Notes under the pieces: model-generated
Database searches by the model: none
The model's input: the letters and a program-made list of their open reading frames with translations, nothing else
Told to the model about the DNA's origin: nothing
Shown: in pieces, positions 8,373 through 52,072 of the stretch
How the letters are laid out: each line of letters begins with the position of its first letter
Position numbering within the stretch: position 1 is the stretch's first letter
Origin: an uncultured delta proteobacterium
GTDB taxonomy: Bacteria > Desulfobacterota > BSN033 > UBA1163
Direction: 5' to 3'
NCBI GenBank assembly: GCA_963827685.1
Contig: CAWHBU010000006.1
Coordinates: 160,001-224,000, forward strand
Length of the DNA: 64,000 nucleotides
Position numbers and translations under genes: made by a program

Positions 8373-8496
8373 ACAATCGCATTTCCTCCCGCCAATAGCG
8401 AAAAATCGACCCGGACTTCTCAAGCCTTAACGCTACTCAAGTTCGCCTGAGGAGTAAATAAGGTGAATACCGTATTTTATGAAGAAATGGAACCTA

Positions 8497-8518
8497 TTTT
8501 GAGACCGACGTCTCAAAA
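8497..8518. promoter_or_regulatory. Perfect 9-bp inverted repeat upstream of the cytochrome gene, possible operator
   Basis: TTTTGAGAC-cgac-GTCTCAAAA. Confidence 0.35.
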
Positions 8519-8544
8519 AGACTGAATTGGTCTAGCCCAAAACA

Positions 8545-8574
8545 AAAAAGCCCTGATCAATAACCAGGGCTTTT
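8545..8574 (-). terminator. Intrinsic terminator downstream of the displaced tmRNA 3' fragment
   Basis: AAAAGCCCTG-atcaataac-CAGGGCTTTT hairpin flanked by A/T runs. Confidence 0.7.
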
Positions 8575-8585
8575 GCAAGCCAAAT

Positions 8586-8613
8586 TGGTGGAGGCGGCGG
8601 GAATCGAACCCGC
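8586..8613 (-). repeat. Attachment site: displaced copy of the last 28 nt of tmRNA
   Basis: TGGTGGAGGCGGCGGGAATCGAACCCGC, identical to 45779-45806. Confidence 0.95.
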
Positions 8614-8668
8614 AACCGCTTTTACAATTATAGGTAAATACAAGGATTTCTTCAATGCGCAAATTGCC

Positions 8669-8686
8669 GGAGAACGTGTGGAGAAC
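8669..8686 (+). repeat. Putative integrase arm-type binding sites (left)
   Basis: GGAGAAC-gtgt-GGAGAAC (11-bp period), same arrangement at 45699-45716. Confidence 0.7.
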
Positions 8687-8706
8687 GCCTTTCTATTGTT
8701 TACCCT

Positions 8707-9851
8707 TCATGTCTTCTTCTCCGGAAAAACAGCCCTGAGGGTATCCACACCGACCCTGGCGTAGCGTTTCGTCATGGTCCTCCTTGTGTGTGCCCGAGGA
8801 ATTCCTGAACGACATCCATCCCCACCCGGTTCACAGCTTCCGTTGCCGATGAATGACGTGTCCCCTGGTACAGAGAGATGTCGATTCCCATCTCAGCCGT
8901 GATTCTATTCCATAGTTTCCGCGCATAGGATTCAGAGTATGGATGCCCGTCTTTTTGAAACACGAATGGCGATCTTATGTGGCGCGGCAGTTTCAGAAGA
9001 GTGTCCCTGACTTCGATATTCAATGGGAGGATTTTGATCCGTTTCGACTTCGTTGTTTCTCGCAGCTCGTTAAGGGAAAAGTGCCTTCGAATGGTGACGC
9101 GATCGTGTTTGAAATCAAGATCTTCCCAGAATAGAGCTCTTGTCTCGGAAGGCCTGACCATTTGGCGAGCTGTAAAAAGTACATAGGCGCGATCCATCGG
9201 ATCTTGAATCAACGATATGATCTGATGTTGCTGATCCAGGTCAATCGTCCTGAAATCGGCCTCTGGAATCTCGAACTCGGGGAACTTGGGCATCGTCGAA
9301 ATATCACCATAGTCCAGGGCATCGGTCATCATCTTGTGAAGTGCCGAGAGGACATTTGATGTGTATTTGGGGGATCCCTGGAGAGATAAATAGAACTCCT
9401 TCACCCTGCGTGTGCCGATGTCACGGATGTCCATTGACCCGAAATGCTCCTGAAAGATTCTCACGAATCGCCGCAGCTCCTTCAGGTAGGATGGAGAAAG
9501 AACTCTCTTCTCGACCTCGGTCTCTCGATCCTTCAGCCACTTCTTCGCGTAGTTTGTGACCTGGAGGGGTCTCAACTTCATGGGCACGTAGCGTGACGGA
9601 TCGAAGGATCCCGCGTCGATCTCGGCCCTGATCTTGGTCAGAATGCGGTTCACTTGCTCATAGGACGAAAACGGAGTCCCGCGGCTATCGCTATAGAGCT
9701 TCATGTGCTTTCCAAGTTCTTTACTATAGAGAACCAAGTAAAATCGCCGCGGGCGAGTCTGATGAATGGGACATAGAAGATCATTCTCAGTTCTGACAAA
9801 TTTTCCCCCGCAGACAGGACATCTCTCTTTAGTATAGATTCCACCCTTCAT
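8707..9851 (-). pseudogene. Tyrosine recombinase/integrase with a C-terminal frameshift removing the catalytic Tyr
   Basis: Motifs RPSE, K, YQGTRHS, LGH; ORF stops at GHTQGGP*. Deleting one CA from the (CA)4 run at 8785-8792 gives GHTRRTMTKRYARVGVDTLRAVFPEKKT* (stop at 8707). Likely start MKGGIYTKERCPVC at 9851. Confidence 0.88.
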
Positions 9852-10053
9852 ACAAAGATCTCCCCTTCCTTTTTGAAGAGGTTTTATTTTATCGCTAAAT
9901 TGGGCGGAAAGCAACTGAATCATAATCTGTTATGCCAACCCTCAATTAGTTTGATTTCTGAAATCTTAATTCTGGGCTTCCTTCAATAGGCCCTGGTCAT
10001 TAATTTCTTCCGAGAACACGATCCTGTAATCGGGGAATGCCCCTTTTAACCAG

Positions 10054-10075
10054 AATTACTGATCATACCCGGTCA
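10054..10075 (-). promoter_or_regulatory. Element-specific motif TGACC-N9-CAGTAATT, copy upstream of the integrase
   Basis: Reverse complement TGACCGGGTATGATCAGTAATT, one mismatch to the copy at 12205-12226. Confidence 0.65.
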
Positions 10076-10176
10076 GTCATTTCTTATTGAGATTTGCTTC
10101 CCAGGCTTAAGAGTATTGAGATATCAGGGTTGATTTGTGAGAAAAGTCGGATTATTCTGATGATAGGACGGATCTT

Positions 10177-11982
10177 ATGAGGAAAAAGAAAAACGAGATA
10201 ACCGAGGATTTTAAAAGAAAGCTGATGGGATTCTTGCCTGAGCTAAGTAGGAATAACCATTACATCATGTTCCTTCATGATTGTATCAGCCGCGAATTTG
10301 ATATCCAACTCGCCCAAATCCAAAGTCATAATGCCGTATCCGACGAAACCAAAGAGCCTGTTGATCTGGTTGGTCATCCTTTCCCATTGTCCAATGAAGA
10401 AATTCAATTCCTGCCAATGTTCATGGATACTCAAGACCCAGCATATAAAAAGGATATGGATGAGTTCATGAGCTGGGTTTCCAAAGGCAGAGACCCGGTG
10501 GCGTTTTTCAAGATGACCAAAGACTACTATGCCCAAAAAAAATCCTGGGTGGTTCAAAAAATTCTGTCTCTTTCAGAGGATTTCGTTAAGGAGTTAATTA
10601 AAATCAGTGAGGAGGAGAATATACCCTTACCCTCCCTTCATAACATGTATATCTTGATGACCGGGATCAACGATTTCTTCCAGTCCCAAGCGAATCACGC
10701 ATTACTGCCGGCTTTTCTTCATTACCCAGTTCCTGTTTCAGTTTCTCCAGACCAAAGGGATGACCGTATAATATCGGTATGGAAACGCCTTTATAACCTC
10801 CTGGTTGAGTGCTATTGGGCCGTGATCGTTGTGGGTATGGTGGATATGCTTAATATTGTTGGGAATTATCAAGAGGAAGGTCTTGAAGAGGCCCGGAACT
10901 ACCTAATGCACTCGGTCATCTATTCAGACTTGGAGAGCCAGGTTCTGCTGATCAAAAACACCGACGATTTGCGTGGCTATGTTCAGAAGGAGTTTTCGGT
11001 CTTTGAAAGCTTTTTCCCGGATTTCGGTGAATTTGTGAGACAGGCTGTAATACCGATCGTTGAGAAAAGAGAAAGGATTTTGAATTACCCGATAACTCCC
11101 CTAATTGACTCCGAAAGTAAAAAAGAATTTTATGACCCCAAAAAGGGAAAAGTTGTAAAATCCCAGACAACTCCTCTCACGGCCTACAAAAATAAACCCC
11201 AGAAAAACGAATCACTTTATAATCCCGAAGCCGAGATGATTGACCATTTAAGAAGACAGGAGCTTAGAAAATTATTTGTCGGGAAGATAAAATCAAAGAC
11301 CAAATCAGTGGACTCCGGTTCTGGTGAAGAAATTATCGAAGGTCAAAGAGATCAGGAAGAATCTTCAAAGAAGGTACCTGTCCTGATGGAATCTACGGTG
11401 ATAGAAGATTTTGAAAAAAAGGTGGGTGTTACTGGATTATTAAAAACCTACCGGCTGACGGGGAATCCAGACAAAATGATTCATTACCTCTTTAAGATTA
11501 TCTCTAATGTTTCCTGGACCATTACCGATAAAATTTACAGCAAAAAATTGAACGATCTTTATGGAGACGGAATGTCTTCTGTAACATTTAGGAGATGGCG
11601 GAGAAAAATAAGAAAAGGGGAAATTCAATTAACTAATCACCCAGATCGGCCAAGTGGCGTCCGGAGTTTTAATGACCTTTTTGAGGGCGAGGTCATAGAA
11701 ATCATGAGAGATATGAAAGACAGGCAGGAACACCACAAGGAAGGATACTTTACCCAAAATGAACTAATTAAGGCCATTCAGGGCGATACGTTCCGATTAG
11801 CTTTAAGAAGAAAGTACGGGATAAGCCTAAAAAAATACGGCAGAACCAAGCTGAGGAATATGCTTAATACATTGATTAATGAGAAAAAGATAACTTTTGA
11901 AAGAGAAAGGGGTGCAACCTATTTCAAAATCAGTGATGGTTTTAAAATCGTTCAAGAAATTGCCAAATTATCCTCCAAATAA
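10177..11982 (+). CDS. Hypothetical 601-aa protein with probable C-terminal HTH/winged-helix domains
   Basis: Long AT-rich ORF divergent from the integrase; GMSSVTFRRWRRK and FTQNELIKAI..GRTKLRNMLNTLINEKKITFER resemble DNA-binding helices. Confidence 0.7.
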   Translation: MRKKKNEITEDFKRKLMGFLPELSRNNHYIMFLHDCISREFDIQLAQIQSHNAVSDETKEPVDLVGHPFPLSNEEIQFLPMFMDTQDPAYKKDMDEFMSWVSKGRDPVAFFKMTKDYYAQKKSWVVQKILSLSEDFVKELIKISEEENIPLPSLHNMYILMTGINDFFQSQANHALLPAFLHYPVPVSVSPDQRDDRIISVWKRLYNLLVECYWAVIVVGMVDMLNIVGNYQEEGLEEARNYLMHSVIYSDLESQVLLIKNTDDLRGYVQKEFSVFESFFPDFGEFVRQAVIPIVEKRERILNYPITPLIDSESKKEFYDPKKGKVVKSQTTPLTAYKNKPQKNESLYNPEAEMIDHLRRQELRKLFVGKIKSKTKSVDSGSGEEIIEGQRDQEESSKKVPVLMESTVIEDFEKKVGVTGLLKTYRLTGNPDKMIHYLFKIISNVSWTITDKIYSKKLNDLYGDGMSSVTFRRWRRKIRKGEIQLTNHPDRPSGVRSFNDLFEGEVIEIMRDMKDRQEHHKEGYFTQNELIKAIQGDTFRLALRRKYGISLKKYGRTKLRNMLNTLINEKKITFERERGATYFKISDGFKIVQEIAKLSSK

Positions 11983-12043
11983 TCTCTGGTTACTCCTTAA
12001 TTCCAACCTCTCAATCTTTCCGTAAAAAGTAATCTCAAAATCA

Positions 12044-12075
12044 TCAAAAAAAGTGACCACCTTTGCCCAGTAATT
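12044..12075 (+). promoter_or_regulatory. Element-specific motif TCAAAAAAAGTGACC-N9-CAGTAATT, copy 1
   Basis: Direct repeat of 12195-12226 with identical spacing. Confidence 0.65.
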
Positions 12076-12194
12076 CTTGGTAGAACCCAGAAACGGTGGT
12101 CGCTATGGAAATTCAGAATCGTGATGAGATCACAGGCAGTGTTTTCTTGTTAATACCTCATTTGTGCTTCAGGACTTTTCCATCTGCCACCACC

Positions 12195-12226
12195 TCAAAA
12201 AAAGTGACCGGGTCTGATCAGTAATT
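12195..12226 (+). promoter_or_regulatory. Element-specific motif TCAAAAAAAGTGACC-N9-CAGTAATT, copy 2
   Basis: Direct repeat of 12044-12075; lies upstream of the 12381 gene cluster. Confidence 0.65.
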
Positions 12227-12380
12227 GTTTTTGAAAGAGCAATTTTTTTAGAAAGGTGGTGATGCCTATGAATGTGTAGATTTCTCTTCGAAGTTTTAAG
12301 GCGGAGGCCGGCCATCCAGGTTCCAGGATGGGCCATTTCTTTAAACCATTAACCAAAATTCACATCAAAGGAGAATTTCT

Positions 12381-13310
12381 ATGAGAAAGAAAGCCGTTTT
12401 AAAGGAAGAGGTAGGGTACTCCGAGGTTGATTTAGCCGAGGTGGTAGACATGGAGATATCGGACAGTGCCGAAGAACGCCAAGAACTTGGTGAACTTGGT
12501 GGAGTTGCTCTGACTCTTGACCCCGTCAAAGGAAAAATCGAAGAAGTCAGGGCAATGGTCACCGAGTATAACCGTTTATTCAACCGTACAGGCAAGGAAC
12601 TGGCTGAACGAGCCATAAAGATAGGATTAGTCCTGATTGAACTCAAATCCATGGTCAAGATGTCAGAAGAAAAGTGGGAAGTCTGGGCCAATGATAATTT
12701 GACTTTCATCGGTAAACGAAATCGCCAGAAGTACATGCTGCTGGCTAAACGTACGGATTGCTATCCCTATATCGACATGGGAGTTGACAGGCTTGAACAC
12801 CTGTGCTCCGTTACAAAGGATATGGATGGGGAGGATCCCATTGGTACCTTCCTGTCGAAATACGGGATCACTGTTGATGAAACCTCTGAATTTGACCTGG
12901 ATGAGTTCAAAGCGAAGGTTGATACTGCACTCAATAATGAGAAGCTCGAAAAACGCAACATTCCAGTGAACTTTGAGTTGGTTGATGCCGTCACCAGGCA
13001 AGGGGTGAGCCTTGATAAAGGGCTCCTCCAAGAGCTTTCCAACATTGCGCAGGCGGGGGGCGATCCTGAGGATCACCTTCGAAGCCTCTCAATGAAGGGG
13101 GGGAGAGATGAAAGTAGGATCATTGGCGAGGTGAAGTTGCAAGACTTCAATACCCTGGCCAATAGAATGATAAAAACCATTGATTACATCTTGAGATCTC
13201 CTGAGCAATTTTCCCGAATTGATACAAGTTCTTTCCTAAGATTAATCCAAAAGCTGATAGATCTTCAGACGGCAGCCAACATAGGCGTCGAACAGGCGAA
13301 GGCTGCTTAA
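12381..13310 (+). CDS. DUF3102-like phage/mobile-element protein
   Basis: AIKIGLVLIELK...WEVWANDNLTFIGKRNRQKYMLLA resembles the DUF3102 pattern (IGxxLxExK...WxxxxF..RxAQxYM); AAGGAG RBS. Confidence 0.6.
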   Translation: MRKKAVLKEEVGYSEVDLAEVVDMEISDSAEERQELGELGGVALTLDPVKGKIEEVRAMVTEYNRLFNRTGKELAERAIKIGLVLIELKSMVKMSEEKWEVWANDNLTFIGKRNRQKYMLLAKRTDCYPYIDMGVDRLEHLCSVTKDMDGEDPIGTFLSKYGITVDETSEFDLDEFKAKVDTALNNEKLEKRNIPVNFELVDAVTRQGVSLDKGLLQELSNIAQAGGDPEDHLRSLSMKGGRDESRIIGEVKLQDFNTLANRMIKTIDYILRSPEQFSRIDTSSFLRLIQKLIDLQTAANIGVEQAKAA

Positions 13311-13382
13311 CCTCTAACCGGCCCCTGTCCCCAATCAGCGTGATGGGGGCCTTATTTATCTTCGCATTAGGAGAAGAAGGTA

Positions 13383-14264
13383 ATGGTCCTTTTTCAGGCA
13401 TCCTTAACCTTGCCAGTTCTGAAACGGTACTATGAATTGTTCGGGGAGCCTCTGAACGTCCTCCTATCCGTTGCCCTGGTCGGATCCGAGACCAAAGGCT
13501 TCCTGCTTGACCACCGGCATATGGTCAATAATATTGTGGCCGACTCCGGCGCCTGGTCGGTGGCCAAAGGGAATTCCAAGCTGACCATCGGGCAGTTGAT
13601 CTCCTACCTTAAGCAATGGGGGCATAAATTCGATTTCTATTTCAACTTCGACACGGACTTCACAGATCACGGGTTCTCCCAAAATTACAGCAACCAAGTA
13701 AAGATGGAGCGGGCAAGGCTTACCCCCGTGCCTGTCATCCACAATTTTTTCAACGACGAGATCGACATTTATGTAGAATCCGGGAAGTATCCATGGCTGG
13801 CATTAGGATCAAGCCAAAGCACCAATCTGGGTGACTTTAGGTACGCTATAGACCGCATCAAATGGAAGGATCCCAGTATTAAGGTCCACTGGTTCGGCGG
13901 GAGCAAGTTTGAATGGCTGGTCAACACTCCTGTGGCATCCTGTGACACGACCTCTTGGGCCAAGACGGGGGCTTTCGGATTGATCAATTTCTGGAATGAT
14001 GAGAAACCAGGATTGAACAAAATGGATCGGATCTATATTGGCGGCACCATGAAACATGATGACAAGCGAATCTACCATTTTGTGACATATCCATATAGAA
14101 AGGCCTTAGAAGCGCATCTGGCCAATACCTTTCGGCTGGAATATGGAGACCTGTGCGGCTACAACGATAAATTTCACATGCAGGTCGTCAATACCCGATT
14201 CTATACCGAGCTAGAAAGGCGAGTCAATGAAGAACGCTTCAGGAGAGGCATCCCTTTGGAATGA
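13383..14264 (+). CDS. TGT-fold, phage DpdA-like guanine transglycosylase (no Zn finger)
   Basis: VADSGAWS, YFNFD, PVPVIH, WLALG, VHWFG, SCDTTSW occur in the order and spacing of phage DpdA/TGT-like proteins. Confidence 0.72.
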   Translation: MVLFQASLTLPVLKRYYELFGEPLNVLLSVALVGSETKGFLLDHRHMVNNIVADSGAWSVAKGNSKLTIGQLISYLKQWGHKFDFYFNFDTDFTDHGFSQNYSNQVKMERARLTPVPVIHNFFNDEIDIYVESGKYPWLALGSSQSTNLGDFRYAIDRIKWKDPSIKVHWFGGSKFEWLVNTPVASCDTTSWAKTGAFGLINFWNDEKPGLNKMDRIYIGGTMKHDDKRIYHFVTYPYRKALEAHLANTFRLEYGDLCGYNDKFHMQVVNTRFYTELERRVNEERFRRGIPLE

Positions 14265-14551
14265 AAAGCGCAGGGGCCTGCGTATTTTGGTAACACCCTC
14301 AAAGATAGAGGAACAATCTCCGGCTGAAGTTGACCCCACTTATGAGAGAACAACGTACGGGGTCTATGAAATCAAAACCCTGAATCTAAACTACCCATGC
14401 CAAAAAGGAAATGAGGTAGAGGAAGGAGGCGATATTATGCGCAGTGGCGAAGGTTAAACCACGTATCCTATATGCGGCGATTGTATGCTTAATAGCCGCT
14501 ATATCAGACCGCTGAGCTATCGGCATTACGGGCAGAAAGGAAAAACACAAC

Positions 14552-15343
14552 ATGGAAGTAACTATTCATCCGAAAGATTTTTCTAACCTTTTAAGATGTT
14601 TATCTTTGCTAAACAACAATAGCAATGATGTAGAAATCCGAGGAGGCATTCTACGTCAACGGTCAAACAACAATGCCTGTATCTTTGAAATGGATCTTAC
14701 TCCTCTGGTTTCAGATTGCGATCTTGTCTTGTCCAATATCAAGAGCAAGTTATCCTTACTCAAGGCCCTATCTAAACAAGAGGTTAAGGTAACCGCTATC
14801 GATAATGACATTTTCTTCTCAGGGGAACGCTCAACTTTTAAGTTTGAAATGCCCCGCATAGATTTCATGGACAACAAGTTCATATCGGGGGAAGAATTTG
14901 CCCGTATCTTCACCTTGAGAGAAGAAGATGTGGTTCTTGAGTATGCCCTCGGTAAAGACATTTTCAGCTTAATGAAAGTAACATCTGGTCAATTTAAAAT
15001 CGCTTCTTTTCAAATATCCTTTGAGGGAAGTACTGCTGCAATTATAGCAACCAATACAAACAAATCGCATTACTGTAAGATAGAGCAGGGAATTCCAATT
15101 AAGAAACCCTTCAAGGGCTTTTCGAACCTAGTGGTAACGCCTTTTCTTATCGACCACGACGGAGATATCCTTCTTAAGATGTATAACTTCCAGGAAACTG
15201 TGTGTGTCAATAAGTTCAAAACCTTAGTTGGGAAAATTACGGTCGTTGTCTGTGGAAGAAGCCAGTTAATAGAAGAATCCGAACCGGATACTTCTGAATC
15301 TAACAGGGAGAACTCAACACATGGGGTGGATCCATCGGATTAG
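14552..15343 (+). CDS. DNA sliding clamp, T4 gp45/PCNA-like
   Basis: 263 aa; by-eye colinearity with T4 gp45: DNDIFFSGERSTFKF vs DGNIKIADARSTIFW, and LMKVTSGQFKIASFQISFEG vs LLRVSRGLQIDTIAITVKEG; acidic tail. Confidence 0.62.
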   Translation: MEVTIHPKDFSNLLRCLSLLNNNSNDVEIRGGILRQRSNNNACIFEMDLTPLVSDCDLVLSNIKSKLSLLKALSKQEVKVTAIDNDIFFSGERSTFKFEMPRIDFMDNKFISGEEFARIFTLREEDVVLEYALGKDIFSLMKVTSGQFKIASFQISFEGSTAAIIATNTNKSHYCKIEQGIPIKKPFKGFSNLVVTPFLIDHDGDILLKMYNFQETVCVNKFKTLVGKITVVVCGRSQLIEESEPDTSESNRENSTHGVDPSD

Positions 15344-15402
15344 TGTTATTAGTCTTCTTCCGATTTAGAACTTAACCTGTACTGTCCTGGACCAATTATA
15401 TG

Positions 15403-15443
15403 AGGGCCAATCTCAATCGTAAACGGGGTTGGCCCTTTCCTTT
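15403..15443 (+). terminator. Hairpin/terminator after the clamp gene
   Basis: AGGGCCAATCTC-loop-GGGGTTGGCCCT followed by TTCCTTTT. Confidence 0.5.
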
Positions 15444-15524
15444 TGGGACACAAACTGGGTTCTGTTCGGTCTTCCTAACCAGAACAAATAATAAATTAAT
15501 AATTTAGATCTAGGAGGTTGTGCA

Positions 15525-15746
15525 ATGAAGAGAAAGAAGTTGACACACGGGATTACTTTCTTTGTTACTGCAGAGACGTACGAAGCGGTCAGGAAAGATG
15601 TGGACGAATGCCAGATTTCAATCTCGGAATTAATGCGTGGATTGATTGAGGATTACCTGTATGGGACTGATTTTTACAGCAAACCGAGTTTGGGTGAAAT
15701 GGAGATTGAAGGAACAAGTATTAAGGAGGCCGAACCTGATGAGTAA
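15525..15746 (+). CDS. Ribbon-helix-helix (CopG-like) protein
   Basis: ITFFVTAETYEAVRK..QISISELMRGLIEDYL beta-alpha-alpha pattern; AGGAGG RBS; upstream of rep. Confidence 0.7.
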   Translation: MKRKKLTHGITFFVTAETYEAVRKDVDECQISISELMRGLIEDYLYGTDFYSKPSLGEMEIEGTSIKEAEPDE

Positions 15747-15784
15747 TGTTGAGATCTTTTTGACTATGAACGGGGGATAGATAG

Positions 15785-16015
15785 ATGACAATAGGACACC
15801 GATTAGGAAGACCAAAACAAAGAAGGTGGAAAGCGAGTCGAATCCGAAGAGAGATAATCGCTAGCATTGAGATGGGGAAAGTTCCAAGCTGGATGAAGGA
15901 TATCCCGTGGTCGAGGATAAGGATGAAAAAACCAAAATTTCAAAAGGCCAGAATTATGCAATGGCCGGAGATGAAATCAAAATATAAGAGCGGGGAGGAT
16001 AGACAAACATGTTGA
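15785..16015 (+). CDS. Small basic hypothetical protein
   Basis: 76-aa ORF with purine-rich RBS, overlapping the start of the Rep-like gene. Confidence 0.4.
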   Translation: MTIGHRLGRPKQRRWKASRIRREIIASIEMGKVPSWMKDIPWSRIRMKKPKFQKARIMQWPEMKSKYKSGEDRQTC

Positions 16016-17274
16016 ATGAGGATCAAAGAGAGTACCTTGATCAGGTGTATACCAGGCTGATACGGACAAATGATCAATATCTACAATCGAGAAATGTTGA
16101 AACTTTTGAAGCTTTAAAACGAGAGTTGGTGAACGCAAACGAAATTTTCGAATCTTTGATTGAACAGGGGCAAGGTGAGGAATGGTTTGAAAAGGGATTG
16201 CAGGTCATAAAGAATACCCTAAAGAATGTAGAGAGCTTCGAGGGAGAGGTTAGAGACTCACATGCAACACCGCAAGAAGTTTTTGCTTATTCTGAACGCG
16301 GGATGAATAAAACAATTATGCCCATCTCAAAAGCTATTAGAGAAATCAAATTCCCCGTTGAATTAGAGATCAATGGCGAGAAGTATTCAACCACCAACTG
16401 TTGGGAAGCTCGCAACTTCATGGCCATGGATGCCCTCTCTTATCTTATTCTCAAGAAATTAGGCTTTCCACGGAAGGCTCAGACCATATTCGACAGCGTA
16501 GAGGATATTGAGAAAAGAGCCGAGCTACTGAAATCAGAAGATATTGTGACAGAACATCAGCTTGAGGAAGATCTGATGTCATTGTTTAAAAATGTGAAAT
16601 ATTGGGTGAAATTTGATGCAGAATTTTTCCGCGAATTCACAGGGAAGCAATTAGAAACGCAACAGATTACGGATCTCCTTACTGAAACCGCCTGCAAATT
16701 TACCCTTTCTTACCCGGTTCTTTTGAGGGACGAAAATAAAATGATAAAGGAGCAGAAGTATAGGGTCTCAGTCCATACGAGCTTCTTCACCTTAGCCTAT
16801 ATAGATTCCCTGGACAAAAACGACAAGACCAAAAAGAGGACCTTCTACGCTTTCTTTAATACGGGCTTAGGTGAATGTTTCGTCAATAACCTCCTCGCCA
16901 AGGGTTATGACATGCTCGACACAAAGAACTTCTATAGTCTTCCTTCTCTGGCACAGATGTTCTTTAGGAAGTTTATCGTACATCATAGTCACTTCGGTCC
17001 GATACATAAATCCCTTGAAGAGATCCGAAAGAGGTTGAATTTGACGATTAAAGGCGATAGTGATTTAATCGCGTATCTCAGAAATAGAGTTTTTGAGCCA
17101 TTGAAAAAGAATGGAGACATATCTGATTATCAAGTAAAGAAGGAACTGAATGACTACTGGATCTATTTTCGACGATCGGACCGAAAGTACCAGATTCATC
17201 AGGAAAATTTGAAGTCATTGGAAGAGAAGAAAACGGGATCGAAAGACTCGAAATTGAAGTCTAGGCAAAGGTGA
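16009..17274 (+). CDS. Putative replication initiator (winged-helix Rep/TrfA-like)
   Basis: C-terminal FYSLPSLAQMFFRKF..KSLEEIRKRLNL..FEPLKKNGDISDY resembles Rep WH2; preceded by an RHH gene and followed by iterons. Confidence 0.6.
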   Translation: MLNEDQREYLDQVYTRLIRTNDQYLQSRNVETFEALKRELVNANEIFESLIEQGQGEEWFEKGLQVIKNTLKNVESFEGEVRDSHATPQEVFAYSERGMNKTIMPISKAIREIKFPVELEINGEKYSTTNCWEARNFMAMDALSYLILKKLGFPRKAQTIFDSVEDIEKRAELLKSEDIVTEHQLEEDLMSLFKNVKYWVKFDAEFFREFTGKQLETQQITDLLTETACKFTLSYPVLLRDENKMIKEQKYRVSVHTSFFTLAYIDSLDKNDKTKKRTFYAFFNTGLGECFVNNLLAKGYDMLDTKNFYSLPSLAQMFFRKFIVHHSHFGPIHKSLEEIRKRLNLTIKGDSDLIAYLRNRVFEPLKKNGDISDYQVKKELNDYWIYFRRSDRKYQIHQENLKSLEEKKTGSKDSKLKSRQR

Positions 17275-17351
17275 CAAAATGGTTAAGGCAGATGGCATGA
17301 AGAAATGCCCGGAGGTGACAGATGAACATTGAGGGAAAAAAGTCGCCAGCG

Positions 17352-17439
17352 GTAACCATTCGGAAGATCCACCTTAAGGATTCGGTGAATCCCAGGTAAG
17401 GATTCGGAGAATCGCAGGTAAGGATTCTTTGAAATGGAC
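17352..17439 (+). repeat. Four 22-bp tandem iteron-like repeats (putative oriV)
   Basis: gtaaccattcggaagatccacc / ttaaggattcggtgaatcccag / gtaaggattcggagaatcgcag / gtaaggattctttgaaatggac. Confidence 0.8.
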
Positions 17440-17474
17440 AATAAGTGGTTGAAATAATTCATCTCTGAAATTCC

Positions 17475-17505
17475 TAAACATATTAAACATTTTAAACATT
17501 TTAAA
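17475..17505 (+). repeat. AT-rich 9-mer repeats (DNA-unwinding-element-like)
   Basis: taaacatat taaacattt taaacattt taaa, 35 bp after the iterons. Confidence 0.65.
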
Positions 17506-18260
17506 GGAAAATCCCTCTCTTTGGATCAGAGAGGTCTTTTCCCACTAAAAACCTTAAGAACAAGAGCAGTAGAAGTAAAAGTCGAAATTCCACTACTATG
17601 GAAAAGAAGGAGTGGGTTTCAATGCTGCTAGAATTTTCCTCGATTAGTAAATTCTTCTGGTAGAGGCATTATTCCCGGAACAAGAAGAAATGTTTTTGTT
17701 GGAAATTCAATGGGGTTTAGTAATTTTCTTCTTCAAAGGAAATTCAACCAGAGTAAAAAGTTTTTCTATTAATTCCTCTCTACCTACTTCTGGAATTACT
17801 TTCAAATAGGATGATATTTCCCCTCTTCCATTAAATTCAACCAGCGCCGGTATCTCTTCATGACATGTACATTGAATTGTAAAGCTAGCTATTCAGTTAG
17901 TAATCCCAGGGTCGCTGTGCCAGAGCTGCTGAACGGGTGTGATTCCGCAAAGAGGCAGGTCAGAGTCCCGAGTCTTCGGTTTGCTTTCTTCAAATAATTC
18001 TGACTTGTGGGTTTCAATGGTCGAAAAGTTTCTGAGACTTTTTTAACTGAACAAATGGAGGTTTTGAGTAAGATGCCATGAATTTCTTTCGGGTCGATCA
18101 TCGTCCCGTGCTAGCGTCGATTACCCTTCATTCTAGTCCTTCTTTAGAGATTTTTGTCTAAGAGATCTTTCAATAACCCTGGAACAAATACTCAAAGAAA
18201 ATAGAAACATTGAATTCAGGTTTCCTAAAGTCATGTCACTTTCAGAGGGGAGAAATTAGT

Positions 18261-19313
18261 ATGGGTGAACTTCATTATTTCTGCGCAACTGCTAAAAAAA
18301 ATAACCTACCTCAGAATTCAGCTCATAATATTTTAATTAACGTACCGCACGATGCCAGGAATGATTCTCAAATCAATAAGTCCGGGGAGTTGTTTAAGCA
18401 CCTTGGCAAGAGATTTTTGATTCAAGATTCAGGTGGTTTTACCGTTTTGCAGGAGGCGAACAAAGGGAAGCGAGTCACCTCCAATCCTAATCTTCCTCTT
18501 AAAATATCAAAAGATGTCATTAATATAGCACCGGAGCATATCATCGAGGCAGCGGTGAAGCTAAAACCTGATATCATGGTTGCTTTGGATTACCCGATCG
18601 CGAAGATAAAAGACCGGGAGGAGCAGCGACGGGAATTTGCTAAAAAGCTTCCATACAACGTCAAATGGAGTATTGAAACTTCAAAACTCAGGGATAAACT
18701 CTGTCCCCGGATTCCACTAATTATTCCGGTGCAAACTTATACGGTAACGGATTTTTACCAGTTTATAAAAAGAATCCATGGAATAGATTTTGAGGGATTC
18801 AGCCTCCCCATAAGGAACCTCGGTCTTTTTGAGATCGCCAAATTTCTTTTGGCATTCCGCAAGACAGGTATAACAAGGGTCCATCTTTTGGGGACATCCT
18901 ATTATCCTATTCTATGTCTCGCAGCATATTTTTCGAATAATTATTTTCAGTGGGTCTCATTTGACTCAAGCACCTGGGCAATAACAGCCAAAAACAACAT
19001 TTATTTAAATCCATTAGATTTGACGCGTATAAAGATCCTCGATGATATCCCCAAGCACAAAGAGAAACTCAGAAGGTCTTGTAGCTGTCCACTCTGTGGG
19101 AAGATACCTCTTGCCCAGTATAAGCACATCCCTTATAAGGGAAGGTCCTATTTCTTGGGGGTACATAATTTCTATGCCACCGAGAAGGTGACTCGGTCTC
19201 TACATGAGCACGTAACCAATTTGGTGGAGTTAGAAGCTTTTTCGAAATCCAATTCCCGTAGGAAAGGCCAAGTTGAAGAGCTTATGAACTTCTTACGGAC
19301 TGCTGATCTTTAA
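18261..19313 (+). CDS. tRNA-guanine transglycosylase-fold protein with Zn site (TGT/arcTGT/DpdA superfamily)
   Basis: IQDSGGF, VALDYP, PVQ, VHLLG, SFDSSTW, CSCPLC...HN; all three TGT active-site Asp positions present. Likely start MGELHYF at 18261. Confidence 0.82.
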   Translation: MGELHYFCATAKKNNLPQNSAHNILINVPHDARNDSQINKSGELFKHLGKRFLIQDSGGFTVLQEANKGKRVTSNPNLPLKISKDVINIAPEHIIEAAVKLKPDIMVALDYPIAKIKDREEQRREFAKKLPYNVKWSIETSKLRDKLCPRIPLIIPVQTYTVTDFYQFIKRIHGIDFEGFSLPIRNLGLFEIAKFLLAFRKTGITRVHLLGTSYYPILCLAAYFSNNYFQWVSFDSSTWAITAKNNIYLNPLDLTRIKILDDIPKHKEKLRRSCSCPLCGKIPLAQYKHIPYKGRSYFLGVHNFYATEKVTRSLHEHVTNLVELEAFSKSNSRRKGQVEELMNFLRTADL

Positions 19314-19801
19314 AGGAATTCCATTACAACTGATAAGCCACGAAGCACCGTGAAGACAGCTGGTTGATTCAATAACCAATCTATTTTAAAGAAACCCATA
19401 TCTAAAAAGGTCAATCTTAATCACGTGATCAAAGGTGATTACCTGTTATTACCAAATTTTTTCTATACCCTCTTTTTGGCAAAAAAGGCTGCCTTTGCAG
19501 TTATCTTTTGGTCATTCATTTCCATCTCCCAGACTGGCCATCTATCCAGTTAACATTGCCCGAGTCCCCCGCCAAATTCGTCGCCCGGTGCGCCCGCGTA
19601 ATGAGGACAGACTGGATCAGAAATTCTTCGCCTTTTACTTGGTTGGAATGATTCGGATATTTCTGGAGGAAATTGGTGGTTCACGGTAAATACCACCCTT
19701 TTCTTTTTGCTGAAGAATTAAACCATCACTCTCTAACGGAAACACCCATCAGATGCGATCAAGGCTCCTGGGAGTGTTGAAGATCCGAAATGGAGAGGGA
19801 T

Positions 19802-19965
19802 ATTTGCATCCATGATGAAATTCTACTGGAAGTCCCTACTGAAGCAACGGATGAAGTGGCTCTCCTTTTCTGACGGGAAGCAATGGAGGAGGATGGCAGG
19901 ACGATGTTGAAGATTGCCCTGTCGAGGCTCAGGTGGTTATTGTGGGTAGTTGGGCGGAGAAGTGA
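19802..19965 (+). pseudogene. Decayed C-terminus of a family A DNA polymerase
   Basis: Manual translation ICIHDEILLEVPTEATDEVALL(stop)REAMEEDGRTMLK(frameshift)CPVEAQVVIVGSWAEK*, i.e. PolA motif C (HDE) and the typical PVE..SWAE end. Confidence 0.72.
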
Positions 19966-20220
19966 TGCTGGGAGATTGCATATAGGATATCAAATAGAAA
20001 CTTTTTAGAGTCGGTTGGAACCAGCGAATAGATAGCAGCTGAACCTTCGTGAAAAGGGAGTTCTCCTTCATCCTTTTTGGTTAATGCTTTCACCCGCTGC
20101 GAAATTGCCAACCTTTGGAAATAAGGTCTACTTCTTTTTGTGGAACAAGGAAGAGAACTATTATCTTGGATAGCAGTATTAGCCATTCTTAAATAGAAAA
20201 TTCTTCCACCTCCTTTCAGT

Positions 20221-21018
20221 TTAGTGAGCGGTCCAGCCTCCATCGACCAGAAGGATATGACCCGTCACCAGATTGGACGCCTCTGAGGCCAGATAGATCA
20301 CTGCCCCAGTGACATCTTCGGGTTTTCCAACTCTCCCTAAAGGAATATTTCCCAGCACGTACTCACGAAAACCCTCTTTCTCAAACATAGGCTTCGTGAA
20401 AGGAGTCTCAATAAAGGTAGGGGCAATCGCATTGACGTTGATGTTGTACTGGGCCCACTCGATGGCCAGGAGTTTTGTCAGTTGATTCACACCTCCCTTG
20501 CTCGAGCAGTAAGCTGCTCTTTGGGGGATGGCGATCGTACCTGTTTGCGATGAGACATTGATGATCTTTCCCTTCTTCTGCTGGATCATCACCTTTCCCA
20601 CTGCTTGAGCACAGAAGAAGAGGGCTTTGAGATTCGTATCGACGACCCTGTCCCAAGCTTCCTCGGTAACATCAACCGCCCATTGGGTGATGTTCACCCC
20701 TGCGTTGTTTACAAGAATGTCGATATGGCGGAAGGTTTTCACGGATTGCTCTACCATGATATGAATCTCAGGAATCTTTGTGACATCCACCCGCTGGATC
20801 AGAACTCTCCGGCCGAGTTTCTCTATCTCCGCTCCCACTCTTTCCAACTCTGATTCCGTCCGACTGCAGACAACCATATCGGCCCCGTATTTGGCCAACG
20901 CCAACGCGATGTGGTATCCCATTCCTCTGCCAGCGCCCGTAACCATGGCAACCTTCCCTGTGAGATCGAATTCAGAAAAAGGAACCTTCTCCATAAGCTC
21001 TCCACAGTTCTTTATCAT
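20221..21018 (-). CDS. SDR-family NAD(P)-dependent oxidoreductase (gluconate 5-DH/KduD-like)
   Basis: TGAGRGMG, NNAG, YCSSK, VDGGW. Confidence 0.9.
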   Translation of the reverse strand: MIKNCGELMEKVPFSEFDLTGKVAMVTGAGRGMGYHIALALAKYGADMVVCSRTESELERVGAEIEKLGRRVLIQRVDVTKIPEIHIMVEQSVKTFRHIDILVNNAGVNITQWAVDVTEEAWDRVVDTNLKALFFCAQAVGKVMIQQKKGKIINVSSQTGTIAIPQRAAYCSSKGGVNQLTKLLAIEWAQYNINVNAIAPTFIETPFTKPMFEKEGFREYVLGNIPLGRVGKPEDVTGAVIYLASEASNLVTGHILLVDGGWTAH

Positions 21019-22853
21019 TGATCCAGTCCTAACTCCTCTAATTTGCCTGGGGTAGGAATCCCATCTTCACTCCACCCCCGATAGGTGTAGTAGTCGCTCA
21101 AAAGCCTTCCCATGGGCGGAAGCTGATTGCTCAAATCCTCTCCTGTCCGCTTTAAGGTCATAAACCGATAAGGAAGAAAATCATCTTTTCGGCTTGCGCC
21201 AAGTCGACAATTGTACATTCTCTTCAGGTTAAAGAGCCTCTCACCCACCTTCATATATTCAGAAATTTCCATGTTCCAACCGGTGATCAAATTAAGCCAA
21301 TCCACATGATTGGTCACATTGACAGCCTTTCCCACTTGAGAAAATCGACAGATGATCAGGGCGTCCATCGCGCACATCAGATCCTGCATCTTTGCTGTAA
21401 ATTCCGCCTTTCCCTCAATCCCATAAGGATCCTGTGGTTCTGAATATCCTATCTCCGTTATGTAGAGAGCCAGTTCATAAGGATGGCTCCAGCTCGCATT
21501 GTGACAGGCTCCCCGGGCCGCCGTTCCGTAAGAGAGGGCCTGGCTGAAAAATCTTCTCGGATCGTGAGCAGAAGGTTCTAATCCCTTCACATGGATGGCA
21601 AACTCGGTGGCATTCTTTCCAAGTGCCTCCGCCATCCTTTTTGAACCTTCTGTCATGAGTTTCCCGATTCCTTCGCCTTTCCCCATTTTATGAACCATCT
21701 CTACCATGGCGTTTGCATTTCCCCAGACCAGTTCAATTCCGTCCGTATCTTCCTTTGTAATGATTCCCTTTTCATAAGCCTCCATGGCAAAGGCAATGAT
21801 GCCACCGGCAGAGATCGTATCCAGCCCATACTGATTGCAGAGTTGGTTTGCCTTGCAAATGGCTACCAGATCGTCCACCAGACAGAGTCCACCCAACGTC
21901 CCGATGGTCTCATACTCCGGCCCCTCACAGTCCATGGGTGCATAAGGACCTTCTGTAACCTTGATGTGTCTTCCGCAGGCAATGGGGCAGTGCATGCAGG
22001 CCCTTCTTCCAGAGAGGATCGTATCATGCATGGCCGCCCCCGAAATCTTTTTGGCTCCTGCCCACCTTCCCTGTCTCCAATTCTTCACAGGGAAATTTCC
22101 AATCTTTTCATAGTTGTCGATACCGCCCGAGGTGCCAAGCTTCCCGAAGGCCTCTGTCGTCCCTTGAATGTGGGGGGTAATTTCTTTGATGTACGCCTTT
22201 AACTCATCAGGCTTAGCAACGGAAATCGGACCTTCTCCATAAACGACCATAGCTTTCAGATTCTTAGAACCCATCACTGCCCCGAGCCCCGTGCGAGCTG
22301 CTGCTCTCACGATATGGCCAATATGAGGAATGCTTGCAATCTTGGCCATGCGCTCTCCTGCAGGTCCGATCACGGCTGCTGTGGCCTCCTTTGCAGTCTC
22401 CCGCTTCAACCATTCCGCTGACTCATAAGAGTCTTTCCCCCAGATGGGCTTAGCGTCCCGAAGCTCCACTTTCCCGTCCCGAATCCAGAGGTAGAGGGGG
22501 GTTTCTGATTTTCCTTTAATCACGATCCCATCGAATCCGGCTTTTTTGAAGTGCACTGCCCAGGATCCTCCCACATTCGATTCCCCAAAGAAACCAGTAA
22601 GAGGAGAACGAGCTACCAGATGATGCCTTCCTGAAGTGGGAACCCCTGTCCCTGTATAAGGACCTGTCATAGCTATGAGAATATTCTCAGGAGAGAGAGG
22701 TTCGGTTTTTGGCCCGGTCTCTTCATTGAGAATTCTCGCCTCAACGCCGAGACCTCCAACATACTTTCGAATCAACCCTTCATTGAGGTCCTCCACTTCA
22801 ATTTTTCTGTTTGTCAAATCCACTCTTAACAACTTCTTATGATAGCCGAACAC
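21015..22853 (-). CDS. aor: Tungsten aldehyde:ferredoxin oxidoreductase family protein
   Basis: RSPLTG, GAVMGSKNLKA, CMHCPIAC, GPEYET, GLDTIS, RGACH. Confidence 0.92.
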   Translation of the reverse strand: MFGYHKKLLRVDLTNRKIEVEDLNEGLIRKYVGGLGVEARILNEETGPKTEPLSPENILIAMTGPYTGTGVPTSGRHHLVARSPLTGFFGESNVGGSWAVHFKKAGFDGIVIKGKSETPLYLWIRDGKVELRDAKPIWGKDSYESAEWLKRETAKEATAAVIGPAGERMAKIASIPHIGHIVRAAARTGLGAVMGSKNLKAMVVYGEGPISVAKPDELKAYIKEITPHIQGTTEAFGKLGTSGGIDNYEKIGNFPVKNWRQGRWAGAKKISGAAMHDTILSGRRACMHCPIACGRHIKVTEGPYAPMDCEGPEYETIGTLGGLCLVDDLVAICKANQLCNQYGLDTISAGGIIAFAMEAYEKGIITKEDTDGIELVWGNANAMVEMVHKMGKGEGIGKLMTEGSKRMAEALGKNATEFAIHVKGLEPSAHDPRRFFSQALSYGTAARGACHNASWSHPYELALYITEIGYSEPQDPYGIEGKAEFTAKMQDLMCAMDALIICRFSQVGKAVNVTNHVDWLNLITGWNMEISEYMKVGERLFNLKRMYNCRLGASRKDDFLPYRFMTLKRTGEDLSNQLPPMGRLLSDYYTYRGWSEDGIPTPGKLEELGLDQ

Positions 22854-45778: not shown

Positions 45779-46133
45779 TGGTGGAGGCGGCGGGAATCGA
45801 ACCCGCGTCCGAGAACCTTCCGGCAGAGCATCTACATACATAGCCTATGTTTTAGATTCGCCCTTCCAAACTCCCACAGGCAGGATTCCAGAAGAACTAG
45901 CTTATGAAGATTCGCTCCTCACCCTATAAGCGTCGGGGAGAAACTATCCTGTTTTTCTGACATCCCTTTCCACCCCACAGGAAGGAATGGGAGGGACGCT
46001 AGCTGCGCTTAGGCAGCCAGGGCATAATCGTAGTTGTTTGCGATTATGTTTAACCCCATTTGTTTTACGAGCCAATGGGACCTCGGCATGCAGCCCTGAC
46101 GTCAACGATCCCCGTCGAACCCTTTTCGCCCCC
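45779..46133 (-). ncRNA. ssrA: tmRNA, tag peptide (A)ANNYDYALAA
   Basis: 5' GGGGGCG pairs with 3' CGCCUCC-ACCA with a G3-U pair; T-loop GGTTCGATTCC; tag ORF GCAAACAACTACGATTATGCCCTGGCTGCCTAA at 46009-46041; next to smpB. Confidence 0.97.
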
Positions 46134-50029: not shown

Positions 50030-50606
50030 GAGCCGAAGGGAACCATAAGCCGAGTTCTGTCATCCCGACCCCGCTTTTCAGCGGGAATCGGGAGGATGGC
50101 CATTTATCTAGGGCCCTGATTGCCCAGGGTCTCAAGCGACCTTACCCGTTCCGCCTTTGTCCCGATGCAATAGCCTCGGGAACAAATTTGAATGGGCTTT
50201 TCTTATCCTCCCAGTGGAATAGGCGAAACCGCCATTCCACTGGGGGAAGCGGAACCTATTTGGTCTTGCTCCAGGTGGGGTTTACCTAGCTACCCCAATC
50301 GCTCAGGGTACTGGTGAGCTCTTACCTCACCTTTTCACCCTTACCCACCAAGGCTCTCGCCTTGGAGTTCGGAGTTGATAGTTCGGAGTTAAAAGCACTA
50401 AACTCTTAACTCTTCACTCATAACTCTTAACTCCCCGCTATCAGCGGGGCAGGCGGTATGTTTTCTGTGGCACTTTCCTTATCCCGCCTTAGCGGGACAG
50501 TCCGTATTACGGACCACCCTGCCCTGTGGAGCTCGGACTTTCCTCCCCTCCTGATCTCTACTTCACGTGATCTCAGAAGGAGCGACCATCTACTTCCCTT
50601 CGACTC
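50030..50606 (-). ncRNA. rnpB: RNase P RNA (type A, enlarged)
   Basis: GAGGAAAGTCCGAGCTCC, AGTGCCACAGAAA, GGTAAACCCC, ACAGAACTCGGCTTAT; complementary 5' and 3' ends. Confidence 0.95.
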
Positions 50607-51996: not shown

Positions 51997-52072
51997 TGGT
52001 GGGCCCACCTGGGTTCGAACCAGGGACCTACCGGTTATGAGCCGGTGGCTCTTCCAGCTGAGCTATGGGCCC
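51997..52072 (-). tRNA. tRNA with CAT anticodon, most likely tRNA-Ile2 (lysidine)
   Basis: GGGCCCATAGCTCAG...GGCTCATAACC...GGTTCGAACC...GGGCCCACCA, 76 nt; no initiator features; downstream of rpoD like E. coli ileX. Confidence 0.9.

Follow-up and report, generated by a model that had tools for sequence, protein, structure and literature searches.

What kind of mobile DNA would carry two enzymes of the TGT fold beside a sliding clamp and a replication initiator, with no gene for synthesis of a deazaguanine base? Deazaguanine DNA modification is described for phages and bacterial Dpd islands, and a host-dependent DpdA on a compact integrative plasmid- or satellite-like element would add a third kind of mobile DNA to these two. 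The gene row that raises this question lies in a 64,000-nt stretch, called the window here, which covers positions 160,001 to 224,000 of contig CAWHBU010000006.1 (assembly GCA_963827685.1) from an uncultured delta proteobacterium of sediment. A first-pass annotation of the window had proposed a non-phage element in which two TGT-fold enzymes and a phage-type clamp form one dedicated system. We find that window positions 8586 to about 20000 are an integrative iteron-controlled replicon of about 11.4 kb, i.e., an integrated plasmid-like element, and the reading we favour, at about an even chance, is that it modifies its own DNA with host-made deazaguanine by a DpdA1-like enzyme recognised from its sequence.

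According to the listing of open reading frames (ORFs) and family scans, the genes of the element form a co-oriented row on the plus strand (10177-19313), with a tyrosine integrase gene diverging from it at 8772-9923 on the minus strand (Table 1). The genes named in the first-pass annotation are real ORFs at their positions, and the nine ORFs of Table 1 from integrase to TGT2 are all uninterrupted. The scan of the 11 ORFs within 8772-20243 against Pfam, PHROG, NCBIfam and PADLOC gave no match to que, dpdB/C, capsid, terminase, relaxase or type IV secretion system families, which agrees with what had been noted before, and the structural and packaging families of PHROG and Pfam were likewise unmatched in these ORFs. 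With no capsid, portal, terminase or tail gene recognised, the element is, judged by its gene content, not a phage. The earlier description of a non-phage, integrative, iteron-type replicon is therefore upheld by the integrase with its ssrA repeat, the fold of the initiator (Rep), the iterons and the missing structural and packaging matches.

The first TGT-fold enzyme had been called DpdA-like, and it is a DpdA homologue. The 293-aa protein matches PHROG 887, annotated 'queuine tRNA-ribosyltransferase', and no Pfam family. By tblastn, 34 phage records match it at 25-27% identity, mostly siphophages of Pseudomonas, Vibrio and Providencia, and the profile of its family (32 members) aligns over 229 columns with the transglycosylase annotated in Pseudomonas phage JG054, at an hhalign probability of 98.6% and E 5e-16. 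The motifs ADSGAWS, HWFGG and SCDTTSW of the window protein pair with LDSGAFS, VHGFG and SCDSSSW in JG054. Residues D54, D90, H169 and D188 are invariant in the 32 family sequences, and D54 (DSGA) and D188 (CDTTSW) line up with the phage motifs. Work on Salmonella DpdA reports that TGT and DpdA share three invariant aspartates, of which two are essential; in the S. Montevideo protein Asp95, Asp130 and Asp256 serve as general acid/base, in base recognition and as nucleophile (accessible text of PMC10164549). As neither the sequence nor its family profile aligned with a solved DpdA or TGT, D54, D90 and D188 are only presumed to correspond to these three residues, and the protein would have the TIM-barrel TGT fold by homology. 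At least 193 clusters of relatives at E<=0.001 make up this unnamed subfamily; among the 120 clusters listed, identity is 54-97% and length about 293-295 aa. DpdA has been divided into five subfamilies, and every deazaguanine modification of DNA is proposed to take place after replication (accessible text of PMC10516641); assignment of the window protein to DpdA1 rather than to another subfamily follows from its Queuovirinae homology and is accordingly tentative. No match to this protein was found in 72,556 plasmid records, and its profile gave none confirmed in IMG/VR.

How would such an enzyme obtain its base? As proposed earlier, the DpdA homologue stands without deazaguanine synthesis genes, none being matched in the 11 ORFs, and queC, queD, queF and tgt are present elsewhere in the host genome, so that the host could supply preQ0 or preQ1. 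The absence of que genes from the element and the presence of queC, queD and queF in the host make a host-made base most likely. A previous study reported that DpdA of phage 9g by itself inserts dPreQ0 in the DNA of a plasmid in E. coli, and it also describes phages 'with only dpdA', which depend on their host (Hutinet et al. 2019, PMC6884629, accessible text). In the mechanism that we favour, the tyrosine integrase would have put the element at a copy of the ssrA 3' end; the initiator, with a RepE/Pi/RctB fold, would bind the 22-nt iterons downstream of its gene; and the PCNA/gp45-fold clamp would help to recruit the polymerase of the host or of a helper. The polymerase would have to be borrowed, since the element retains a PolA stump only. 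The DpdA1-like transglycosylase, whose presumed catalytic aspartates are intact, would replace guanines in the element DNA by preQ0 or preQ1 after replication, and the modified element would be shielded from restriction when moving. The clamp and Rep would serve replication of the element, and the second enzyme (TGT2) would be separate cargo of this copy only, apparently active in ArcTGT-like base exchange on DNA or tRNA.

Several results weigh against this reading. Neither the single DpdA-like sequence nor the family profile matched a TGT or DpdA among the PDB sequences. Bacterial DpdA requires the ATPase DpdB, which is modelled to encircle DNA (accessible text of PMC10164549), and a DpdB-type partner was found in none of the 11 ORFs by Pfam, NCBIfam and PADLOC. 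Neither an AAA+ clamp loader nor an intact polymerase is present in the element, and the PolA stump is partly decayed. The role of TGT2 falls outside the account. A search with ssrA 3'-end twelve-mers gave no second att repeat near ~20 kb, and because the matching ssrA repeat lies 37 kb away, the limits and the mobility of the element are putative. The contigs of four freshwater-sediment runs, in which the element is present at low depth, gave no excised circle or empty-site joint over 7000-22000, although contigs cannot show absence.

Table 1. Positions of the features of the element in the window, and of the two further elements of the same genome
Feature	Position	Strand	Evidence
att-type repeat, exact 28-nt copy of the ssrA 3' end	8586..8613	-	0 matches expected by chance
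Tyrosine integrase, 383 aa, N-terminal Cys-rich stretch	8772..9923	-	PF00589 5e-14; phrog_1 4.4e-31
orf601, conserved backbone protein	10177..11982	+	no family match (Pfam, PHROG, NCBIfam)
DUF3102-like protein	12381..13310	+	PF11300 E 0.015, below cut-off; Atlas DUF3102 clusters
DpdA-like DNA guanine transglycosylase, 293 aa, unnamed subfamily (by homology)	13383..14264	+	phrog_887 9.8e-25
Two-domain PCNA/gp45-fold sliding clamp (modelled), 263 aa	14552..15343	+	AlphaFold 2 (AF2) pLDDT 89.4; Foldseek PCNA, T4 gp45
Small RHH-type protein (CopG/ORF56-like)	15525..15746	+	NikA-like 9.1e-5; RHH_1 0.0057; NF041793 ORF56 5.9e-4
orf76, basic small ORF overlapping rep start	15785..16015	+	no family match (Pfam, PHROG, NCBIfam)
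Replication initiator, tandem winged-helix (RctB/Pi/RepE-like) fold (modelled), 421 aa	16009..17274	+	AF2 pLDDT 75.9; Foldseek
Iterons, 22-nt unit x 3.2 copies	17351..17433		77 nt past rep stop
TGT2, stand-alone ArcTGT-like catalytic domain, 350 aa from M18	18261..19313 (ORF opens 18210)	+	PF01702 5.5e-15
PolA C-terminus, broken, motif C HDE to stop	~19790..19965	+	PF00476 positions 331-369, E 0.031
C2 element: tRNA-Thr, integrase, orf622 (72%), DUF3102-like (57%), clamp (67%), orf87, DUF5131, orf116, primase-helicase, Rep (39%)	~7519-17859 of L005 (C2:68000-87999)		identity to window proteins in brackets
C6 element: tRNA-Phe, integrase, HTH_17 excisionase-like protein, small ORFs, Rep (47%)	upstream of window		identity to window protein in brackets

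Clamp, initiator and polymerase remnant

The gene directly after dpdA encodes a protein without a family match in Pfam, PHROG, NCBIfam or PADLOC. Its AF2 model (pLDDT 89.4, pTM 0.83) was matched by Foldseek to PCNA at E 3.7e-10 and to T4 gp45 (3u61_F, TMt 0.77, rmsd 3.5), with RB69 gp45 also among the best matches. As modelled, the protein is a two-domain clamp protomer, and the gp45-like clamp that had been proposed from the sequence is borne out at the level of predicted fold. It has 71 relatives in a large protein collection. Its profile found none in 400 other genomes of the phylum, and only pattern matches, with no relative confirmed, in a set of one genome per species; there was also no match in 50,697 phage records.

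The position of the clamp gene after dpdA raises the bolder idea of clamp-coupled base exchange, in which the clamp, here and in Queuovirinae phages, would be the DNA-encircling partner of DpdA by analogy with DpdB in bacteria and would tether it behind the replication fork, so that newly replicated DNA becomes deazaguanine-modified. We regard this as unlikely. A prediction of the clamp-DpdA complex gave a score of 0.02 and no verdict, which weighs neither way. In the literature searched, no study meaningfully ties DpdA to a sliding clamp. If the idea is true, the small element would be a minimal portable 'modify-as-you-replicate' cassette, with TGT2 as a second writer of other base or sequence specificity.

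The initiator matches none of the Rep families of Pfam or NCBIfam and had no match in the 72,556 plasmid records. Foldseek placed its model nearest to RctB domains 2-3 (2.8e-5), Pi bound to iteron DNA (2e-3) and RepE (2.3e-3), at TM-scores of 0.3-0.5. Direct repeats follow the gene, and an A+T-rich stretch runs from them to about 18200. The modelled winged-helix fold and the direct repeats beside rep make this an iteron-initiator pair by prediction, as the first-pass annotation had suggested. Iterons of 21 nt also follow rep in the C2 element and in locus L013, so that they occur in three of the six cases examined; the short stretches inspected in C6, L020 and L060 showed none. Between clamp and rep, the small RHH-type protein is probably a copy-control or regulator protein. 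The RHH label given earlier holds as far as NikA-like, RHH_1 and ORF56 matches go, but all of them are below the curated cut-offs.

The PolA remnant at the right of the element had also been recognised before, and the PF00476 match and the visible HDE motif agree with it. It is interrupted by an in-frame TGA and a frameshift, IHDEILLEVP... and ...VPVEAQVVIVGSWAEK (followed by the stop) being seen in two frames.

We also observed that a stretch of ~100 nt, which codes for the final ~35 residues of a polymerase of family A (...LKIVPVEAEVVIADSWAEK, then stop), has five copies in the genome: window 19856-19965, C6:117570-117656, C6:124340-124429, C2:73280-73385 and C3:1019559-1019666. Three of these copies are found ~2.3 kb downstream of three Rep homologues, each with different intervening cargo, namely TGT2, a major facilitator superfamily (MFS) transporter and an EamA transporter. 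This repeat may mark the right end of such elements.

Distant relatives of the clamp, at 29-44% identity, are carried by contigs of 100-245 kb, many of which are classed as viral. A Pfam scan of three such loci gave the same module in all three: an AAA+/Rad17-like loader, a 327-aa protein, a 130-aa protein, the clamp, a FEN-type exonuclease, and RuvC or LigD_N. A QueC-family gene was found in each of the three viral records searched out of five (E 1e-29 to 1e-36; the records are 49-78% complete). These distant clamps with their loaders, together with the QueC-like clusters, make a satellite lifestyle possible, in which the element would hijack the replisome of a large helper phage: the helper's loader would put the clamp, as a diverged copy of the helper type, on the origin opened by Rep, and DpdA would give the element a helper-like deazaguanine modification, so that it survives the nucleases of helper and host and is packaged. 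Satellites are typically small and integrated at tRNA or tmRNA genes, and PLE, PICI and P4-type satellites borrow the replisome of their helper; the small size and the integration site of the element fit, as does a Rep with an origin and no loader, polymerase or virion genes. However, Pfam and PHROG scans recognised no gene for redirection of packaging, for capsid remodelling or for a small terminase, and no helper was identified in this genome. The three viral records showed no PF01702 or TGT2-type gene and only one weak phrog_887 match (3e-4). QueC-family proteins have moreover been repurposed, one subgroup pairing with deoxyribosyltransferase-like genes (accessible text of PMC13329287), and because of such other roles the QueC genes are a lead only, and deazaguanine DNA in these large phages is presumptive. 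To our knowledge, carriage of a clamp together with DpdA is not a described satellite trait. On balance, we consider such a helper-dependent life rather unlikely.

The QueC genes of the three viral records (L088, L089 and L090, from G401, G403 and G402, respectively) lie in a cluster of their own. The QueC-family protein in it is short (182-188 aa), and its companions are a glycosyltransferase, a dCMP deaminase, a protein with a dATP/dGTP diphosphohydrolase N-domain and a nucleoside 2-deoxyribosyltransferase-like protein. This nucleotide-metabolism cluster may be an undescribed purine modification pathway.

Backbone, cargo and the second transglycosylase

Do the two enzymes and the clamp belong together? 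A tblastn search of the element proteins on the whole genome revealed two further integrated elements (Table 1). The C2 element shares the backbone and has neither DpdA nor TGT2. Where the window has the RHH gene and orf76, it has a radical-SAM-like gene of the DUF5131 type and a primase-helicase of 630 aa (PrimPol-PriCT-DnaB_C), and its integrase is apparently split into two ORFs (16656-17126 and 17249-17776 of L005).

The related loci number 65 (55 from metagenomes and 10 from IMG/VR). Twelve loci are informative, namely ten of the 65 with a clamp >=52% identical and >=1 kb of upstream sequence, plus the window and C2. DpdA lies between the DUF3102-like gene and the clamp in six of the twelve (L012, L013, L014, L020, L022 and the window); four (L016, L017, L018 and C2) have the DUF3102-like gene and clamp without DpdA, and L021 and L025 have neither gene upstream of the clamp, so that a DUF3102-like gene is upstream in 10/12. 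The backbone is thus orf601, the DUF3102-like gene, the clamp and Rep. TGT2 occurs in 0/65 related loci. The synteny expected by the first-pass annotation therefore recurs for the DUF3102-DpdA-clamp part and in none of the other loci for TGT2, and its central claim of one dedicated system of two TGT-fold enzymes and a clamp is not sustained, given the C2 backbone without either enzyme and the three metagenome loci with DUF3102-like gene and clamp but no DpdA. On one contig, the DpdA is 97% identical to that of the window and the clamp only 73%, which suggests cassette exchange.

The backbone protein orf601 is 72% identical both to its C2 paralogue (orf622) and to the protein of L017, and it gave a weak PADLOC JetA match (1.5e-4) and no usable Atlas match; the helix-turn-helix formerly ascribed to it found no support in family matches or Atlas leads. 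The DUF3102 label of its neighbour is among the weaker ones: 8/30 Atlas matches are DUF3102 clusters (score 0.94), and the Pfam match stays below the cut-off. The literature searched has only incidental mentions of DUF3102.

L020 shows a whole small element flanked by chromosomal genes, consisting of integrase, orf350, DUF3102-like gene, DpdA, clamp, a Zn-finger ORF, Rep (71%) and an HNH endonuclease. The last of these (HNH_5, 295 aa, L020:11952-12839) holds the post-rep cargo position that TGT2 holds in the window.

Among phages, the gene order queE, (gat-)queC, queD, folE, dpdA, clamp-position gene and DNA polymerase B was found in all three deazaguanine siphophages inspected (JG054, vB_VpS_BA3 and PSTCR4), and the dpdA-clamp-polymerase order as such is not new. 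The clamp-position gene codes for ~320 aa and is annotated as 'DNA polymerase III beta subunit' in JG054, as 'DNA polymerase beta subunit' in BA3 and as hypothetical in PSTCR4. In another genome of the phylum, L087 holds a distant DpdA relative with an intact 560-aa PolA two genes downstream. As a side note, orf218 of L087 was tried as a clamp and ruled out (hhalign probability 0.1), and the ORFs upstream of DpdA in L085 and L086, tried as DUF3102-like genes, gave marginal BLASTP matches only.

The phage gene order, the PolA reduced to a broken C-terminus in the window and the intact PolA retained near DpdA in L087 could suggest that DpdA, clamp and stump are a functionless leftover of a Queuovirinae-like module that has lost its que genes and polymerase. 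We find such decay very unlikely. The nine ORFs are uninterrupted with invariant catalytic residues, the DpdA family is large (at least 193 clusters) and uniform in length (~293-295 aa), and the DUF3102-DpdA-clamp order recurs in five independent contigs at 62-66% DpdA identity, which implies selection. The element is also not a simple fragment of a JG054-like phage, since its clamp shows no sequence relation to that of JG054 (hhalign probability 0.3). An eroded prophage whose relatives carry que genes had been named as a finding that would undo the earlier proposal: relatives of the module do occur in phages with que genes, but the small element is not an eroded prophage, because the compact architecture from integrase to Rep recurs independently in L020 and L013 and in the C2 and C6 paralogues.

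TGT2, the second TGT-fold enzyme of the first-pass annotation, is a member of the PF01702 TGT/ArcTGT family by sequence, and that identification stands. It scores 55.7 bits against a PF01702 cut-off of 26.3, it matches ArcTGT 1iq8 at 2.2e-7 with the CSCPxC...H zinc site aligned, and its family profile matches 1iq8 at 3.8e-11; the aspartates and the CxCxxC...H site complete the family features. Translation probably starts at 18261, since most relatives begin at residue 18 of the ORF. Among 42 sequences of a family with 226 representative relatives, D56, D110, D235, C274, C276, C279 and H302 are invariant. In the 582-aa 1iq8 chain, only residues 107-317 are matched, the C-terminal tRNA-binding (PUA-type) domains of ArcTGT being absent, and the score of 38.1 bits against the TIGR00432 equivalog cut-off of 350 means that TGT2 is not ArcTGT proper. 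It was found in 3/401 genomes, including that of the window; in the phylum of G404, the only one of 351 genomes to have it is G404. The 50,697 phage records gave no match, and none was confirmed for its profile in IMG/VR.

Its sporadic occurrence fits mobile accessory genes, and its nearest relative is the tRNA enzyme ArcTGT. One or both TGT-fold enzymes could therefore be defence or counter-defence cargo that exchanges or removes deazaguanine in phage DNA or re-modifies host tRNA, with the element as a defence-island vehicle; the weak PADLOC 'TGT' match (0.005), the HNH endonuclease after rep in L020 and a TGT-like pair on a Haloferax plasmid beside 'BREX system ATP-binding domain', QueD and DUF262 genes can be read in the same way. 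However, no nuclease, ATPase or other effector partner adjoins either enzyme in the window by Pfam and PADLOC, TGT2 is without the tRNA-binding domains of ArcTGT, and DpdA is clearly homologous to phage self-modification enzymes. The anti-deazaguanine defence proteins known from one study (accessible text of 10.1101/2025.10.29.685425) are glycosylases, and the term 'TGT' is absent from that text. A defensive role is thus, in our view, quite improbable.

The Haloferax locus, at 68363-74907 of H. alexandrinus plasmid pBNX82-4 (L092), may be an archaeal counterpart of the Dpd loci. Its two neighbouring genes annotated as TGT-like code for 964 aa and 344 aa; after them come a hypothetical protein, the BREX-annotated protein and a QueD-type gene, and the DUF262 gene is upstream. 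In the plasmid collection, TGT2 has the 344-aa protein as its sole relative, at 27% identity. On a 1,942-nt contig recorded as part of an Omnitrophota metagenome-assembled genome (L080), a TGT2 relative of 38% identity (124-783) is followed at 1058-1213 by a small ORF with 33% identity over 52 aa (E 8e-5) to orf87 of C2. This pairing hints that TGT2 travels with the element family in another phylum.

Integration site and flanking DNA

The 28-nt repeat directly adjoins the 3' end of the integrase gene. Its second copy, at 45779-45806, is inside ssrA itself (45779-46133, minus strand), and a terminator-like hairpin follows each copy, the one at the element being at 8540-8575. The siting near ssrA that had been noted earlier thus holds for the exact 3'-end copy, but the gene lies 26 kb from the element. 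The 37 kb between the repeats, as a whole a possible single island, spans ordinary-looking metabolic genes, including aldehyde:ferredoxin oxidoreductase, a branched-chain ABC transporter, a xanthine-dehydrogenase-type enzyme and a molybdopterin oxidoreductase. The integrase has no paralogue in the same genome by tblastn.

The right end of the element would lie between 19965 and 20163, similarity to the same-genus genome G246 starting at 20163; from there to 24042 the two genomes share the sequence at 87%, in G246 on another contig. When ssrA, tRNA-Thr and tRNA-Phe were aligned locally with the right ends of the three elements, matches stayed at chance level, and a genome-wide 11-mer scan for ssrA fragments was uninformative, being swamped by matches resembling tRNA T-arms. 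In G246 (locus L009), ssrA is followed by ~9.8 kb of unrelated DNA and then by a match to C6:150017 and downwards, and the variable DNA downstream of ssrA amounts to ~55 kb here. According to this arrangement, the region downstream of ssrA is a composite insertion hotspot.

Other flanking features are ordinary, such as an 818-aa multihaem cytochrome with MtrC/MtrF-like domains (5967-8423, minus strand), RNase P RNA (50030-50602, minus strand) and tRNA-Met (51997-52072, minus strand).

Comparison with known systems

If it works as we propose, the element would be a very small clonable test system for host-dependent deazaguanine modification. Three large unnamed families are delimited by this analysis, namely the DpdA subfamily (at least 193 clusters), TGT2 (226 representatives) and the clamp (71 proteins). 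The adjacency of dpdA and a clamp gene, with a PCNA/gp45-type clamp here and a beta-type clamp in Queuovirinae, offers a testable idea for phage-type DpdA without DpdB.

TGT2 shares with ArcTGT (PDB 1iq8) the catalytic TIM-barrel region, three aspartates and the CxCxxC...H zinc site. It differs from ArcTGT in its length of 350 aa, in the missing C-terminal domains for tRNA binding, and in being bacterial, sporadic and placed on a mobile element. With the iteron plasmids and chromids (RepE of mini-F, Pi of R6K, RctB of Vibrio chromosome 2), the element has in common the predicted initiator fold and direct repeats of 21-22 nt by rep, whereas its Rep matches no Rep family of Pfam or NCBIfam, has no match in 72,556 plasmids and belongs to DNA integrated by a tyrosine recombinase. 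PLE, PICI and P4-type satellites are similarly small, with an integrase, their own initiator and origin and no replicative polymerase, but the element is without recognised packaging-hijack genes and has no known helper.

Like the bacterial Dpd island dpdA-K, in which preQ0 comes from the queuosine pathway of the cell (accessible text of PMC10164549), the element carries a putative DNA transglycosylase of the TGT superfamily. It differs in that neither DpdB (a ParB-like ATPase) nor DpdC nor DpdD-K is found among the 11 ORFs, and neither of its TGT-fold proteins matches solved DpdA by sequence. The phages with only dpdA (accessible text of PMC6884629) are close in having DpdA without synthesis genes in a host with a queuosine pathway, yet they are phages, whereas the present case is an ~11-kb integrative iteron replicon without recognisable structural genes.

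The Queuovirinae-type siphophages (JG054, Vibrio phage vB_VpS_BA3 and Providencia phage PSTCR4) have a homologous DpdA and a clamp-type gene directly after dpdA, and their polymerase follows the clamp; in the window, a clamp likewise comes after DpdA, with the polymerase stump downstream. The element differs from them in being without folE, queC/D/E, an intact polymerase and virion genes, and its clamp is PCNA/gp45-like, with no detectable sequence relation to the JG054 'DNA pol III beta'. It has, in turn, an integrase and a Rep of the iteron type, besides a DUF3102-like gene and another TGT, and it looks like a stripped-down mobile version of the deazaguanine-phage module.

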